Assembly: GCA_039811685.1 (NCBI GenBank)
Contig: JBDHZC010000002.1
Span: 288,001-352,000, forward strand
Direction: 5' to 3'
Source of the DNA: Armatimonadota bacterium
GTDB lineage: Bacteria; Armatimonadota; UBA5829; DSUL01
Length of the DNA: 64,000 nt
The translations under genes were made by a program, and so were the position numbers. The notes under the pieces are model-generated. The model saw only the letters and a program-made list of their open reading frames with translations, was not told the origin of the DNA and made no database searches. Positions 1,561 through 9,164 of this stretch are shown here, one piece after another (the stretch's first letter is position 1; each line of letters opens with the position of its first letter).

Positions 1561-2784
1561 CTACTTGGTGGGAGCAGGCGGCGGTGGCGGCGGAGCCTCT
1601 GTCCCGCCGGAGCCGTTGCCAGTGGCCGGTTTGGGTTTTGGCGCTGGCGCAGGCTTGGGCGCGGGTGGCGGTGTGGGCGTCATAGCAGGCGCGGGCTTCG
1701 GGTTTTCTCCGACGTAGCGCGTTGTCTTCTTGACGCAGTCCTCTTTCACACGCAGATACCAGGCCGTCATCTCCGGACGCAGTTTTTCGTCTGTAATCCG
1801 CTTCGTCAACTCGGCCTTTTCGGCAGGCGTCGCGTCTTTGCCCAGCTTCTCCACCTGAATCAGGTGGTAGCCGTAGTTGGTCTTGACCGGTTCAGAGATA
1901 TCGCCGGGTTTCAGAGCAAACGCCGCGTTGTCAAAATCCGCAACCATAGTGCCGCGCTTGAACCACCCCAGGTCGCCGCCCTGCTGCTTACTGCCCGGAT
2001 CGTCCGAGTGCTCCTTGGCAAGCTCGTCAAACTTCGCTTTACCGGCCAGAATCTCCGCTTTCCAGTCCTCGAGCTTCTTCTTGTTGTCTTCTTCGCTCTT
2101 GGCTTTTTCTTCAGGCGTGTTGCCGGAAGTGCTGAGCAGAATGTGGCGCGCCTTGATGTACTGAGCCAGGTCCTGATCAGTCACCTTGATACTCTTGGCG
2201 GCAGCTTTTTCGACGTAGATATTTGTCTTCAGCTCATCCCGAAGCTGCTGATCTGTCAGGTTGTACTGGCTCTTGAACTGGTCGAAGGTCATGCCCTGCT
2301 GAGCCACACGGCCTTTCAGCTCATTCACCTTCTCGTCAATGTCAGCCTTGGTAATCTGCACACCCTGAGCCTGCGCGGCCTGCTGCACACAGGCCTTGTC
2401 AATGAGCTCGCTGGTGAGACTGACCGCGTAGCGCTGCCACGCGGCATTGTCCACCTGACCCTTGGTAATCTTCTGAGACCCGACTATCGCCACGACGGTC
2501 GAGGCAGGCGCGCTGGCTGTAATCGGCTTCTTCGGCGCAGGTGTAGCCGGTTTCGCTGCAGGCTTGGCGGCGGACTTTGCAGCCGGTTTTGCCGCAGGTT
2601 TGGCCTTCGGCTTGGCAGCAGGCTTGGAAGCTGCAGGTTTGGTGGTGGACTTGGCCGCCGGTTTGGCGGTTGTGGTCTTGGTCGCAGGCGTAGATGCCGC
2701 AGCCCAGACAGCGGTTTTAGTGGCTGGTAGCGAGGCGAGCCCCAGTGTCAACGCGGTCGCCATCCATAGAGATGCCCTACACAT
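1561..2784 (-). CDS. Exported parvulin-type peptidylprolyl isomerase (PrsA/SurA-like foldase) with Ala/Lys/Pro-rich N-terminus and Pro-rich C-terminus
   Basis: [42 protein letters not shown] rotamase motifs; signal peptide after ATG 2784 (start chosen by me; ORF extends to 3012). Confidence 0.88.
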
Positions 2785-3123
2785 AGGCGTAAACGTGCTC
2801 CTCTCTGAAGCAGACTTCAGGACTTTGTTGCGTAAGTCGCATAGTAGCTGATCAGTTGCGCATAGCGCGCAAAAGGCATAGGCTAGCCGCCCAACGCCAG
2901 ACAGCCGGACAGTATTATGCCCCACAAACCCGCCTTGTGCATAGTCTATAGCGGAATTTGGGATAATTCCTCGTGAAACCAGAGTCTGCTGATCGCGACG
3001 TGAGCGACACAAGCATTACGAACAGATATCCCGCGCCGGTTCCGGCAACCGCCAGCTTTGCGCTGGTGCTACAATACAGGCAGCTTCGAGTCCGTGGCCT
3101 CACTGCATAACACACCAGCCATC

Positions 3124-4272
3124 ATGAAAAAACGGGACAAAGCCATCATAGACAACTGGCGCGAGGAGATGCGGGCTGCGCAGACGTACGAGACTCTCGG
3201 TAAGGTAGAAAAGGACCCACACCGCAAAGCGCTCTTTCAAGAGCTGGCTGAGATGGAGAAGAAGCACGCCGGGATGTGGGCCCAGAGGATGGCGCAGCTT
3301 GGCATTCGCCAGCCGCCTCCGCCACCGGGACGCCGGGCCAAAGTGTACCGGCTCATGGCAAAGCATCTGGGACCGGTACGCATGCTGGAGCGCATTGAGA
3401 AGGATGAGCGCCATCACGCGCACGAGTTTCAGCGGCAACTCAAAGAGATTCACGAGGACGACGCCGTCATCCTAAGAGAGATCGCCCACGATGAGAAAGA
3501 CCTGACCAGACGGCTGCACCACGCTGTCTCGGAATCCAGGGAACAGGGCGAGCTCAACTACCTTCTTCACCGGGAGAAGTGGCACGTCAAAGGCGGAAGC
3601 TGGGTGGCGGACGCTATCTACGGAGTCAATGATGGGCTTGGCGCGGTGTTTGGCATCGTGAGCGGAATGGCCGGCTACACGGGAGGCAGCGGACTTGTGC
3701 TGGTTGCCGGTCTGGCCGGTATGCTGGCAAGCGCCCTCTCAATGGGCTCAAGCGCGTATCTGGCGGCCAAATCCGAAAAGGAAGTCATCGAGTCAGAGCT
3801 TGCTCGCGAGCGCGAGGAGATCCTCGAAGAACCCGAAGAAGAGCGCCGGGAACTGGAGCTGATCTACAAGCTGAAGGGTTTCTCAGATGAAGAGGTCGAT
3901 ATCCTCGTTGACCGCCTGAGCAAGAATCCCGAAGACATGCTCAGCACTCTGGCGCACGAGGAGCTGGGTATCTCCCACTCTTCCGCGCCGAATCCCTGGA
4001 CCAGCATGTTCTCATCTATGATCTCCACCGCTATTGGCGCCTCTGTCCCACTGATCCCGTTCTTCTTCACGACGGGCATGCCGGCTGTCGTCGCCGCTCT
4101 GGTAATCAGCCTGATGGCTCATTTCGCCGTAGGCGCGCTCAAGAGCCTCCTTACCACGCGCCACTGGTTTACCTCAGGCCTCGAGATGACCTCTGTCGGA
4201 GTCATTGTCTCAGTCGCCACCTACATCCTGGGAAGGCTGCTTGGACAGGCGGGGCTCCCTGGCGCAGGCTAG
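3124..4272 (+). CDS. Rubrerythrin/ferritin-like domain fused to a VIT1/CCC1 iron transporter (MbfA-like)
   Basis: N-terminal E..(x)..EKKH and DERHH di-iron motifs; DAIYGVNDGL and SALSMGSSAYL VIT1 motifs; ATG at 3124. Confidence 0.88.
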   Translation: MKKRDKAIIDNWREEMRAAQTYETLGKVEKDPHRKALFQELAEMEKKHAGMWAQRMAQLGIRQPPPPPGRRAKVYRLMAKHLGPVRMLERIEKDERHHAHEFQRQLKEIHEDDAVILREIAHDEKDLTRRLHHAVSESREQGELNYLLHREKWHVKGGSWVADAIYGVNDGLGAVFGIVSGMAGYTGGSGLVLVAGLAGMLASALSMGSSAYLAAKSEKEVIESELAREREEILEEPEEERRELELIYKLKGFSDEEVDILVDRLSKNPEDMLSTLAHEELGISHSSAPNPWTSMFSSMISTAIGASVPLIPFFFTTGMPAVVAALVISLMAHFAVGALKSLLTTRHWFTSGLEMTSVGVIVSVATYILGRLLGQAGLPGAG

Positions 4273-4451
4273 GGCAAAAGCCACGCAAATCTCTCACCGC
4301 CCTGTCCGGACCCGCTCCGAGCCTGTCACGCCGCTGCATCGAAACTACACCACTAACCTCACATCCCCACGAGAGAGGGAAAAATTCTTTTATCTTTTTT
4401 CACAGGTCTGTTGCACTGACAGGAATTGACAGTGTCAGCGCCTACACTGGA

Positions 4452-5026
4452 GACGTGGGGGAAACAATCGGGCCAAACGACGCGCCTGGACCAGCCCATC
4501 GTGTCAGTTGTGGCCCCTGGCAGAAAGCCTCGACCTGCGCAACCCGTCTGCCACGTATGCAGATGGGACTCCCCCCACGCACGCAGCGGAGAGCCTCTGC
4601 GACTGGCGTCAGTCGTAAGCGTTACGGCCGAAGAGGAGCCGCAGCCTTTACCACTGAGTGTTGGAGGTGGAGCCTGGCACTGAGCGCAAGGGCTGCTCTT
4701 TATTCTTCGGCTCAGAGGTAGCGGGCTGACTGGCCGCGGCGCTGCCCGGATTCACAGCAGCGCACACGAGTGAGCGCCAGAGGCACAGCCTGAGATGTCC
4801 GGCAGGACGGTTGTCGCGCGGCAGGGGGCGGCGCCGCCCGCCGGGCGGCGGGGACGTGAAGCCGCCTGCGATGCGCTGAACGCCTGAAGTGTGCAGCCGC
4901 TATTTCGTGACTGGGCAAATGGCGCCACGAGCGCGTCTTGACCTGAGCGCGCGTTCACGTGTGGCACACCCGGCGATGCAACCGCACTCTGGAATGTCAC
5001 CAACGAGCGAGAGACGTTGCGGTGGG
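4452..5026 (+). ncRNA. Candidate large multi-domain structured RNA, family unknown
   Basis: About 765-bp gap between convergent genes with no convincing ORF; many nested stems whose G-U pairs work on the + strand (see findings); boundaries approximate. Confidence 0.5.
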
Positions 5027-5037
5027 AGAAGAAAAGT

Positions 5038-6144
<1,107 letters not shown>

Positions 6145-6267
6145 TTGTTAAGCGATTCCTCCCATGATGGGCAGCGCTCCCGGCCTGGCAAGACGCCTCC
6201 GGGCCATCAAGAAGCGAGCAAAACGTACAACGCAGCGCAGTTTATCCGCGCAAGCGGCTTTCCGGGA

Positions 6268-6297
6268 ATTATACGAAGCAGGCGCGCCTCGCGTCAA
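6268..6297 (-). promoter_or_regulatory. Sigma70-type promoter of the ABC ATPase gene
   Basis: Minus strand TTGACG-N18-TATAAT about 125 nt upstream of the start. Confidence 0.7.
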
Positions 6298-6443
6298 TGG
6301 GCAGATTCCCATCCGCTCCCGCGCGTTGGGTTTGGACACCCTGGAGGCGCCCGCTATCACAGGTTCTGACACACTGCCATGGCTGACCGCGACACCTGCG
6401 CTTGAGCCGCGCCCGTGGAAGCCTGATGCATGGCGCCTGCTCC

Positions 6444-9164
6444 TCATCTCTCTGCACTGATATGAAAGCTGTATGAGCCGGAACCCACTTCCAGCCTGAC
6501 CCACTCCCCTGCGTCCTGTGCAGACGTAACTCCGGTTACAGCGTTGAAAGAGCTGTTTTTCCACACCGGGCGCCCGCCTTCAGTCACTGTGGCTGCGCCT
6601 GGCGCTGTCTTGGGCGCCCACACCCGAGCCTGGGCATTGGCGGGCACGGTCACATTCAGTGTAACGCCCGAGGAGTCGCGCTTCCAGTGAGACGCAACTC
6701 GTCCGCGCGCAGTATCCACCGACGCCTGCGCCTCGTTGAGATCGCCCATCAGATAGGGCTTTACGTCAAAGCGCTCGTAGCCGGGATAGCGCCAGTCTGG
6801 AACGATACCGGCCATATGTGAGTAGAACCAGCCACTGATAAAGCCGAAGGCAGGGTGGTTGTGCGAGTTCATCCCAGGTCCTGTCTCGCGCTTCCACAAC
6901 TCCCAGATCGTCGTTGCGCCGTTGGCAATCATGTATCCGTATCCGGGATAGTCAGGTTGGGTGGCGACTGTATAGGCGACGTCGGGGCGACCTTCATTGC
7001 ACAGCGCTTCAAAGAGATAGCGTGTACCCGGGAAGCCAGTACTCAGATGTCCCTTGTGTGTGACCATAATGTCGTGCACAAGGTTGTCCACTACAGCCGC
7101 ACGATGGGCTTGCGGCACAATCTGGAGATACAGCGGCCAGATGTACGAAAACTGACTTCCGTTGCCGTAAACATTCGTCTGAGGGTCGAAAAACTTGCTG
7201 TTGAAGGCTTCAGCAATCTTCCCGCACAACTCCGCGTACGTGCGCTGATCGTCGAGCCTGCCGAGTTGCTGCGCCATCTCACTCACCAGCTTCGATACAA
7301 AATAAAAGCAACCCGTTGAGATGAGGTCTTTGGGCGTTTCGACCAAACCCACCCAGTCACCGTAGTTGTTATGGGTGTAGATGTAGCCGGGCGACCCACT
7401 CTTGACAAAATCCACATAGCGCTTCAGTCCGTCGTAGTGCTTCTCCAGCAGGGCTCTGTCACCGTCATGGCGGTAAACATTCCAGACAATGAGATGATAA
7501 GCCACGGACCACATCGGGTCGCCCACGTCTGTACCCCAGACGTGCGGGACAGTGTCCGGAATACGCCCGTCCGCCCCTTGAGAGTCCTGAATGTCCTGCG
7601 CAAACTTGGTGAACGCCGCGCCCATATTGAAGTTGTAGCATCCCGCGTCACACGTCATTCCCGCGTCACCCATCCATCCCTGCCGCTCATCCCTTTGAGG
7701 GCAGTCTGTTGGGATCGAGTGGAAATTCGTCTTAAATCCCCAGACGGAGTTGTGCTGTATCTGGTTGATCAGTTCGTTGGAACAAGAGAACTCCCCGCGC
7801 GGCGAGAAGTCTGTGTGGACCAGTCTTCCCTTCACAACATCCGAGCCTTCCGGGCGTCCCGGATAACCTTCTATCTGCACGTAACGAAAACCGTGGTAGG
7901 TGAATCTGGGCTCGTAGATTTCCTGCCCGGAGCCTTTCAGAATGTAGGTGTCCGTGGCTTTTGCTGACCGGAGATTTTCCTGATTCACTGAACCATCCGG
8001 ATGCAGTATCTCTGCGTAGCGCAACTTGACTTCCTGCCCCGCCGGTCCGGCCACCCGTAGCTGGCACCACCCCGAAAAGTTTTGCCCAAAATCGAACACC
8101 CACACGCCGGGCTTGACTTCCTTCATGCTCTTGAAAGGCAGTGTTTCGGTTACCCGAACGGGCTGAATCTCCTGTGCGGACAGCAACTTTGTGGGAGAAT
8201 CACAGAGAACAACTCCTCTCCACGCCGAGTCGTCGAATCCCGGCATGTCCCAGCCAGACTGCTCAAGCCGGGCGTCATAGGTCTCGCCGTTGTAAAGGGA
8301 GTTCATCAGAATCGGACTGGTGGACCACTTCCACGACTCATCCGTCGCAAAACTGGCGTGCGTTCCATCGGTGTAATCGACATTTATCTGAAGGAGAAGA
8401 CACAGATTCTGCGAGAACCAGCCCTTGCCGAGAATGGCTCCGACGGCGTTCTTTCCCTCTCGCAGAGCGTCTGTGACGTCGTAGGCGCTGTAAAGGGCGC
8501 GCCGGTCAAAGTTGGTGTAAGACGGGTCGAGCACCCTGTCCCCAACTTTCTCCCCGTTAATCCGCAGCTCGTAGTATCCGAGCCCGCAGACGTAGGCGCG
8601 GGCCCGGCGGATAGGTTTGTCCAAAACTATCTCAGTGCGCAGTTGCGGCGCGATCTGGGACTCTGCCGCCGCGGCGGGGCCGTCACCTTTGCCGCCCGGC
8701 GGGGCGCCAATCCATTTGCCCCGCCAGTCACCCGGGCGCAGAAGCCCCATCTCAAAGCTCGCCGGAGACGACCACTCACTCTCGCGCCCATGGCCGTCCC
8801 AGATTTTCACGCGCCACCAGTAAGCCTGAGCGCTCAGAAGCGCAGAAGCTTCACAGGGCACGCTCAGTGAATTGGCAGACTCGACTTTCCCGCTGTCCCA
8901 GACGACAGATTTCCCCGCAACGAGCGACTGCGGACCGGTGGCCACCTGAATGCGATAGGCAGATTGAAGCGCGCCGCGCTCTGTCTCCTGCATCTGCCAC
9001 GACAGGAGCGGGCGCTTCGCGTCGATACCAAGTGGACTCACGCGATGCTCGCACGTCAGATTGACAGCGGACGGCCTAGCCGCCTGAACAGGTGAAACGG
9101 AGACACAAGACGCAGCCATCAACAAGAGAGCACAGGCGGAGACAGAAAAGAGGTCGTGATACAT
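6444..9164 (-). CDS. Secreted alpha-L-rhamnosidase family protein (GH78)
   Basis: Signal peptide; DFGQNFSGW, PRFTYHGFRY, PTDCPQRDERQGWMGD, GATTIWELW, MNSHNHP motifs. Confidence 0.92.
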   Translation of the reverse strand: MYHDLFSVSACALLLMAASCVSVSPVQAARPSAVNLTCEHRVSPLGIDAKRPLLSWQMQETERGALQSAYRIQVATGPQSLVAGKSVVWDSGKVESANSLSVPCEASALLSAQAYWWRVKIWDGHGRESEWSSPASFEMGLLRPGDWRGKWIGAPPGGKGDGPAAAAESQIAPQLRTEIVLDKPIRRARAYVCGLGYYELRINGEKVGDRVLDPSYTNFDRRALYSAYDVTDALREGKNAVGAILGKGWFSQNLCLLLQINVDYTDGTHASFATDESWKWSTSPILMNSLYNGETYDARLEQSGWDMPGFDDSAWRGVVLCDSPTKLLSAQEIQPVRVTETLPFKSMKEVKPGVWVFDFGQNFSGWCQLRVAGPAGQEVKLRYAEILHPDGSVNQENLRSAKATDTYILKGSGQEIYEPRFTYHGFRYVQIEGYPGRPEGSDVVKGRLVHTDFSPRGEFSCSNELINQIQHNSVWGFKTNFHSIPTDCPQRDERQGWMGDAGMTCDAGCYNFNMGAAFTKFAQDIQDSQGADGRIPDTVPHVWGTDVGDPMWSVAYHLIVWNVYRHDGDRALLEKHYDGLKRYVDFVKSGSPGYIYTHNNYGDWVGLVETPKDLISTGCFYFVSKLVSEMAQQLGRLDDQRTYAELCGKIAEAFNSKFFDPQTNVYGNGSQFSYIWPLYLQIVPQAHRAAVVDNLVHDIMVTHKGHLSTGFPGTRYLFEALCNEGRPDVAYTVATQPDYPGYGYMIANGATTIWELWKRETGPGMNSHNHPAFGFISGWFYSHMAGIVPDWRYPGYERFDVKPYLMGDLNEAQASVDTARGRVASHWKRDSSGVTLNVTVPANAQARVWAPKTAPGAATVTEGGRPVWKNSSFNAVTGVTSAQDAGEWVRLEVGSGSYSFHISAER

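Follow-up and report, generated by a model that had tools for sequence, protein, structure and literature searches.

A structured, abundantly transcribed RNA gene with a PafBC-like promoter layout in a bacterium of the Armatimonadota

Does the 765-bp gap (4273–5037) between two convergent genes of an Armatimonadota bacterium, one for a VIT1 protein and one malK-like, contain an RNA gene, and if so, of what kind? The window analyzed here comprises 64,000 nucleotides (nt) of contig JBDHZC010000002.1 (positions 288,001 to 352,000 of the forward strand; assembly GCA_039811685.1), part of a genome of 3.42 Mb with a G+C content of 57.8%. Because the flanking genes converge, neither needs a promoter inside 4273–5037. 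A first-pass annotation, made from the sequence alone, had placed in the gap an ornate structured non-coding RNA (ncRNA) of ~570 nt (4452–5026), possibly representing an undescribed large class. Our analysis shows that the gap holds a stand-alone, abundantly transcribed, structured ncRNA gene of at least 380 nt, which we infer to lie on the plus strand.

Fold energies, expressed as z-scores against dinucleotide shuffles, show that the first ~340 nt of this RNA are structured beyond chance, and on the plus strand only. The interval 4455–4792 reaches z −3.60 on the plus strand (0 of 100 shuffles as good) and −0.97 on the minus strand; 4455–4720 gives −3.04 on plus (0/200), and 4452–4581 gives −4.20 on plus (1/200) and −2.34 on minus. 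As a control, 161 random 130-nt windows were drawn from the genome, and not one reached −4.2 (mean z −0.05, standard deviation 1.10, minimum −3.67). The minimum free energy (MFE) fold consists of two plus-strand domains. Domain 1 (4455–4578) is closed by a 7-bp stem (4455–4461/4572–4578) and carries three arms (4470–4516, 4518–4541 and 4543–4567); in domain 2 (4603–4780), a long-range stem (4603–4616/4766–4780) encloses an 87-nt rod (4626–4712) and small hairpins at 4721–4737 and 4739–4763. The junction and rod helices traced by eye in the first-pass annotation are reproduced here and exceed chance on the plus strand. A sliding 120-nt scan detects plus-strand signals at 4460–4579 and 4610–4729 (z −2.71 on plus, −1.66 on minus), and a third signal, at 4820–4939, is present on both strands.

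The G+C-rich 3′ tail (4781–5034, plus strand) lacks excess structure; it may form the RNA's 3′ portion or else overlap the malK 3′ untranslated region. The stretch 4715–5034, with a G+C content of 72–75%, folds like its shuffles (z +0.21, with 59 of 100 doing equally well), and the whole 591 nt reach z −1.75 only. The long-range and 3′-terminal helices described earlier for this part can be found in the sequence but do not stand out from shuffled controls, so that the shuffle comparison bears out 4452–4581 and 4455–4792 and not 4715–5034: of the ~570 nt once regarded as structured, ~340 nt remain.

Transcription of the structured part is evident from metatranscriptomes. Six runs from five studies contain 39–63% of the sampled words of the stretch (DNA runs contain 81–94%), and contigs of four of these RNA runs, from four studies, were mapped on 2500–7500. 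All four yielded a contig over the RNA at 99–100% identity: 4466–4789 in X15 (depth 8.4), 4462–4839 in X17 (depth 40.1), 4471–4792 in X18 (depth 4.9) and 4474–4773 in X19 (depth 12.6). In all four studies these contigs are several times deeper than the neighboring genes; VIT1 (3058–4272) has zero RNA cover in every mapped run, and pieces of malK at the organism's own identity appear only in X15 and X17, at depths of only 2.4–2.9. As VIT1 is uncovered and malK shallow, DNA contamination cannot explain the contig signal; of the stretches lacking cover, VIT1 alone is used as evidence, as the silent control. The RNA is found in wastewater metatranscriptomes and is abundant there. The earlier proposal of a structured non-coding RNA on the plus strand is upheld by the fold excess, and the contigs show transcription.

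The minimal transcript delimited by the contigs is 4462–4839, to which the plus strand is assigned from the promoter and the fold asymmetry, since contigs cannot show strand. Contig starts range from 4462 to 4474, and adapter sequence directly abuts 4462 in X17, a hint of a common fragment end. Contigs of all four runs read through a weak terminator-like site at 4682–4698 and break at ~4790–4850, in the most G+C-rich part, where the breaks may be technical; a second X15 contig covers 4850–5034 at depth 2, in one of the four runs. The 5′ arm of the rod has two linked variants, C>A at 4628 and G>A at 4636, which occur in RNA contigs of two studies and are probably strain differences.

Could the transcript instead be the mRNA of a small protein, or come from a decayed gene or a mobile-element remnant? 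Open reading frames (ORFs) of 85–129 amino acids (aa) are present in the gap, and the VIT1 gene is missing from relatives, so the area has been rearranged. Yet none of the ORFs matches Pfam, the 88-aa plus-strand and 129-aa minus-strand ORFs have no homologue among 5.8 billion protein clusters, tblastx gives no match to relatives, and no ribosome-binding site was seen, by reading, before any ATG in the gap. Against a remnant speaks the scarcity of related sequences: repeats within the gap are limited to short chance pairs, a BLAST search of the gap against its own genome found a single copy and no second one, phages gave no match to the RNA, and plasmids gave one G+C-rich match of 41 nt. We assign this explanation a minimal probability, and the earlier description of the gap as having no credible ORF holds.

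The same is true of its statement that no RNase P, tmRNA, SRP, OLE or group I/II intron signature is seen. Rfam 15 (4227 models, gathering score) has no match in the whole window, and a search of 4200–5100 at E ≤ 10 returned two chance-level matches of 15 bits each; no relevant family was detected in the relatives' loci or in 20 loci of other phyla sharing the promoter motif described below. The housekeeping RNAs score above cut-off elsewhere in the genome: ribonuclease P RNA at C4:238335, transfer-messenger RNA at C2:702184, 6S RNA at C4:98721 and signal recognition particle RNA at C9:4218. An origin related to CRISPR RNA was considered and rejected. The genome's 37-nt CRISPR repeat, with arrays at C2:636.9–638.3 kb and C13:11.0–11.7 kb, shares 11 letters of its 3′ end with 4972–4982. 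This identity is not significant: among 1494 random 765-nt segments of the genome, 5% have a gapped score as high (p ~0.05). The spacer-like sequence after the 11-mer matches nothing.

The most informative feature of the locus, missed in the first-pass annotation, is a promoter directly upstream of the RNA. It has the form TGACAG-N4-TGACAG-N10-TACACT (4417–4448, plus strand), with direct repeats 10 bp apart. The distal TGACAG (4417–4422, about −38 to −33) is directly preceded by CAC (4414–4416); the proximal TGACAG(TG) repeat spans 4427–4434, its TGACAG (4427–4432) lying at −28 to −23, and the −10 box TACACT (4443–4448) follows it at a distance of 10 nt. Transcription is predicted to start near G4455, 7 nt after the −10 box and at the first base of the domain 1 closing stem; in all three genera compared below, the predicted start sits on a G(A/U)GGG run. 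An A/T-rich tract at 4380–4400 (plus strand) is similar to the GAAAAA...AATTCTT tract of the sister genera and may be UP-like. A sigma-70 scan of 4100–5300 returned no site. As read by eye, the −35 candidates TTGACA and CTGACA lie 11 nt and 21 nt from the −10 box, and none lies at 16–18 nt.

The pattern TGACAG-N4-TGACAG-N10-TAnnnT has exactly three sites in the genome. Besides the one in this gap, they are located ~85 nt before the ATG of cas3 (G000:C2:646462–646493, minus strand), encoding a protein with HD and helicase domains, and ~190 nt upstream of a gene for a PUR-like DUF3276 protein of 94 aa (G000:C13:26257–26288). The DUF3276 gene (L020:2480–2761) lies just upstream of an rRNA operon, which has its own canonical −35/−10 promoters. 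A single TGACAG with a −10 box is not enriched in the genome (14 matches vs 18 for a control).

A search of 61 genomes from the class and phylum gives 16 matches to the full pattern, in 9 genomes, and none to its reversed control; the 10-nt distance from the proximal repeat to the −10 box is the same in 16/16 sites. The family is represented by six genomes of three genera, namely our own, G001, G003 and G005 (g2), and G002 and G004 (g3). Each of the five relatives has one motif copy convergent on its malK orthologue, which makes six of six with our own genome, and the g3 genomes have no perfect site besides it. At the remaining ten of the 16 sites an ORF with the same orientation as the motif begins 0–78 nt past the −10 box, which fixes the motif's direction; most of these sites show a purine-rich, ribosome-site-like stretch before the start, as read by eye. 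The downstream ORFs encode, according to Pfam, Cas3-like helicases (G032, G018), ARPP-1, an ankyrin membrane protein and a lipoprotein, and near-identical copies of those ORF sites are found in G012, G001 and G005. Cas3-like helicase genes preceded by the motif occur in three genomes from other families of the class: G032, G018 and G012.

Which regulator could use such a promoter? The mycobacterial promoter of RecA-independent DNA-damage genes is given as tTGTCRgtg-8nt-TAnnnT in the available part of PMC5656591, and the WYL activator PafBC, in the portion of PMC8635444 accessible to us, acts at a −26 element (−23 to −28) combined with a canonical −10 box and no −35 element. At our locus, TGACAGTG occupies 4427–4434 (−28 to −21) and is followed by 8 nt and then TACACT; it agrees with the mycobacterial consensus TGTCRGTG in 7 of 8 core letters, in a host from the Armatimonadota. 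Judged by these letters and distances, the putative promoter has the layout of the PafBC/WYL "−26/−10" hybrid (sigma adaptation) promoters. A single WYL protein is encoded in the genome, with the domains HTH_11, WYL and WCX. Its gene (G000:C2:659429–660394) is separated from cas3 by ~13 kb and from a CRISPR array by ~21 kb; orthologues are present in 5/5 family relatives and in 45 of 53 class genomes (G000 included). A degenerate two-repeat motif with 2–3 mismatches overlaps the start codon of this WYL gene (L121:2118–2141, minus strand) and may indicate autoregulation.

The association of the motif with WYL proteins extends to other phyla. Genomes of 185,579 species were scanned for ACTGACAG-N4-TGACAG-N10-TAnnnT, yielding at least 118 stretches, compared with ~70 expected by chance for 17 fixed letters according to our own arithmetic. 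Among the matches listed, clusters occur in Oxalobacteraceae, Pseudomonas, Devosia, Zixibacteria, Ignavibacteriales, Acidobacteriota and Armatimonadota. Eighty of the at least 118 loci were examined, and 56 of them have an ORF plus a purine-rich stretch within 260 nt. Pfam assignments were made for 38 of these 56 ORFs, picked by eye, whose leaders are mostly short (in a few cases up to 100 nt): 18 are glyoxalase/VOC proteins, four GST, two GyrI-like, two DEAD helicases and four HTH_11 regulators (one with WYL in a fragment), with four other and four unmatched. Divergent genes at 26 loci included 16 ORFs of at least 120 aa, four of which encode HTH_11-WYL proteins. The motif therefore adjoins HTH_11/WYL genes at eight loci of other phyla (four before, four divergent), and because ORF picking was crude, the counts of WYL association are lower bounds. 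From this distribution, the two-repeat motif looks like a general operator-promoter of the HTH_11-WYL family.

In many phyla, the ACTGACAG-type motif lies mostly 25–75 nt before glyoxalase/VOC, GST and GyrI-like genes (L122–L201). In Zixibacteria and Ignavibacteriales (L158 with two tandem sites, L130, L134), sequence conserved from record to record follows the motif. Within 260 nt no ORF preceded by a ribosome site was found, and no Rfam family matches there; these sites may be further WYL-driven ncRNAs.

At our locus, the promoter has kept its place while its surroundings changed. The malK-like ATP-binding cassette ATPase gene (5038–6144, minus strand), which converges on the RNA gene and closes a gene run containing an alpha-L-rhamnosidase gene, is the promoter's neighbor in 6/6 family genomes; its orthologues share 83–84% aa identity in the four relatives where the gene is full-length, and the G005 copy is split. 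On the other side, upstream of the promoter, stands the VIT1 gene (3058–4272, plus strand; ferritin-like and VIT domains by Pfam). No VIT1 homologue was found in 5/5 family relatives, where a peptidyl-prolyl isomerase (PPIase)/SurA-like gene (here 1561–2784, minus strand) directly adjoins the promoter region. Hence VIT1 would have been inserted upstream of the promoter in our genome, or lost elsewhere, and in either case the promoter survived. The motif is missing in all 80 metagenome loci that contain malK relatives (≤75% identity). The PPIase/SurA-like gene is itself covered by own-identity RNA contigs (2538–2999, depth 2–7, three of four runs) spanning its 5′ end plus ~200 nt upstream, which suggests a long leader or a separate transcript.

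The body of the RNA is not conserved in this way. BLAST searches in 60 relatives matched nothing of it apart from the promoter and a G+C-rich 23–27-mer, blastn and tblastx against the syntenic loci recovered the promoter motif only, and aligning the RNAs of all six family genomes with MAFFT was uninformative; no seed or loop is common to the three genera. A covariance model of domain 1 (R2), run on 53 class genomes, gave one match in our own genome and no credible match in the 52 others; an additional match in G019 was rejected as false, being coding-like DNA without the motif. These comparisons indicate an RNA private to one lineage and not a widespread class.

They also bear on the idea that the locus encodes an ornate RNA of ~570 nt, the first of a conserved large structured class whose tertiary fold is its function. 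The multi-domain fold is significant on the plus strand for 4455–4792, and the RNA is abundant in RNA data and unmatched in Rfam, all as expected of such a class. However, neither BLAST nor the domain 1 model finds a body homologue, the 3′ 320 nt fold like shuffles, and the sister genera have far shorter, barely alignable RNAs at the same locus. The undescribed class proposed in the first-pass annotation is accordingly very improbable in our view: the homologue search suggested for it left the RNA body unmatched.

In the g3 genomes only ~70 nt separate the −10 box from the malK stop. The G004 RNA folds into a closing stem around two hairpins (z −2.28 on plus, −2.41 on minus), with the complement of the malK stop codon overlapped by the 3′ strand of this stem; G002 has a different MFE fold, with a z of −1.38. 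In the g2 genomes (G001, G003, G005) the RNA is ~150 nt long with z about −3.5 (G001: −3.56 on plus, −3.29 on minus). Because both strands score alike, the hairpins of the sister genera may also serve as the terminator region of malK. Compared by eye, domain 1 resembles the G002 and G004 RNAs in its last arm and its closing strand, and local alignment of the G001 and G004 RNAs gives p 0.011.

Such turnover could mean that the RNA is a functionless by-product: a WYL-type promoter, a relic or one kept for other reasons, would fire into a fast-evolving spacer, and G+C-rich hairpins, in part those of the malK terminator region, would stabilize what is made enough for it to accumulate. An unconserved body with a length between ~70 and more than 380 nt, the lack of a terminator and sister-genus hairpins that score on both strands, as a shared terminator region would, all fit this idea. 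It accounts poorly for a promoter that is intact in 6/6 genomes of three genera, is the sole perfect site in the g3 pair and survived a VIT1 insertion beside it, for a fold that is strongly strand-specific in our genome, and for an RNA several-fold deeper than its neighbors in four studies. We consider a by-product unlikely, though worth keeping in mind.

Alternatively, the RNA could belong to a WYL regulon and act in trans or by binding protein, with distant mRNAs, the Sm-like WYL domain or a Cas component as partners. The promoter type in common with cas3 and the stable, structured 5′ domain of an abundant RNA agree with this, and WYL domains resemble RNA-binding Sm folds, according to the available part of PMC6789036. 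No seed or loop, however, is kept across the three genera; searches of our own genome for trans targets, by complementarity or similarity, found chance-level 15–17-mers only; and later work on PafBC, as far as the accessible part of PMC11804915 goes, names single-stranded DNA as its ligand. We regard a trans-acting or protein-binding RNA as decidedly unlikely.

The explanation that we find best, and to which we give about an even chance, is an ncRNA of a WYL regulon that acts mainly in cis at the 3′ end of malK. The single HTH-WYL-WCX regulator (helix-turn-helix, HTH) would activate the RNA together with cas3, the trigger probably being DNA damage or foreign DNA. The RNA would start at ~4455, belong to a small damage or defense regulon and act mainly where it is made, by pairing or colliding with the malK operon transcript at the 3′ end of the latter. 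Its stable 5′ junction domain would be the conserved, stabilizing core, and the additional 3′ sequence in this genus a lineage-specific extension. Local action is suggested because the place and direction of the promoter are kept in six genomes and the RNA body is not, its length being ~70, ~150 and at least 380 nt in the three genera; in the sister genera, geometry forces the RNA to overlap the malK mRNA.

Several observations weigh against this explanation. Contigs give neither strand, ends nor level, and RNA libraries can hold DNA. The first contig base, 4462, is 14 nt past the −10 box, beyond the usual start distance, and an RNA starting there would miss the closing stem of domain 1. No intrinsic terminator was found, the sole weak site being that at 4682–4698 (shuffles average 1.0). 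The abundant part ends at 4773–4839, at least 200 nt before malK, and no contig extends into malK as antisense; one low-depth contig, in one of four runs, reaches 5034. A cis-antisense role is weakened in our genome because the abundant part stops so far short of malK. Of the two variants in the contigs, G4636A turns a G–U into an A–U pair and C4628A breaks a C–G pair (A–G); no other variant positions were seen.

The comparisons among genera count in the same direction. A covariance model built on the G002/G004 pair (R1) misses both our RNA and the G001-type RNA, and the domain 1 model R2 has no syntenic match in the relatives; the failure of the sister-RNA model, like the lack of excess structure in the 3′ part, also speaks further against a large class. 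Local alignment gives p 0.0035 against G002 (2000 shuffles) and p 0.20 against G004, and homology of the RNA bodies across genera is possible but weak. The link between the promoter and the WYL regulator, finally, is a putative one, drawn from layout and gene neighborhood.

How does the locus compare with known systems? Like the mycobacterial PafBC (RecA-NDp) promoters, it has a TAnnnT −10 box, an element ending 8 nt upstream of it and located at −28 to −23, and no usable −35 box, and like the PafBC hosts, the genome encodes an HTH-WYL-WCX regulator. It differs in one core letter, in the second TGACAG 10 bp upstream, in having one WYL gene instead of the pafB/pafC pair and in belonging to the Armatimonadota instead of the Actinobacteria. 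Moreover, the PafBC regulon comprises ~150 DNA-repair genes, whereas the putative regulon here is tiny, with three perfect sites.

Among stress-regulon small RNAs, IstR-2 of E. coli is controlled by LexA. Our RNA would similarly be an ncRNA gene placed in a DNA-damage-type regulon by its promoter; unlike IstR-2, it is at least 380 nt long and multi-domain, its putative regulator is of the WYL type instead of LexA, and no adjacent toxin gene was seen. GadY of E. coli is a convergent cis-antisense RNA overlapping the 3′ end of its target. Our gene likewise converges on a protein gene, and in the sister genera the RNA reaches over the malK stop codon on the complementary strand, but the abundant part of our transcript stops at least 200 nt short of the gene. 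OLE, GOLLD, ROOL, HEARO and raiA are large ornate RNAs, and 6S and Ms1 are abundant ones. With these RNAs the present one shares an intergenic position, a length of several hundred nt, a multi-domain fold and abundance; in contrast to them, it is unmatched in Rfam and has no conserved homologues, while those classes are defined by conservation and covariation.

We may further speculate, as a long shot, that the most conserved target of the family's single WYL regulator is no protein gene and instead a fast-evolving structured RNA, co-regulated with cas3 and taking an active part in the response to DNA damage or phages, perhaps as a feedback partner of the Sm-like WYL domain or as an off-switch of a sugar-import operon during that response, and that WYL-driven ncRNAs exist in other phyla.

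For the Armatimonadota, a barely studied phylum, the locus provides a new RNA gene that can be approached experimentally. Its promoter suggests that the PafBC "−26/−10" type occurs outside the Actinobacteria, tied to HTH-WYL regulators across many phyla, and that it drives here both cas3 and an ncRNA. If the promoter–WYL link is true, the two-repeat motif would offer a sequence rule for finding WYL regulons, and the RNA would be the first WYL-controlled ncRNA, as far as we have found. The locus shows that the body of a regulated RNA gene can turn over even as promoter and position are retained, and conservation-based RNA screens would miss such genes.

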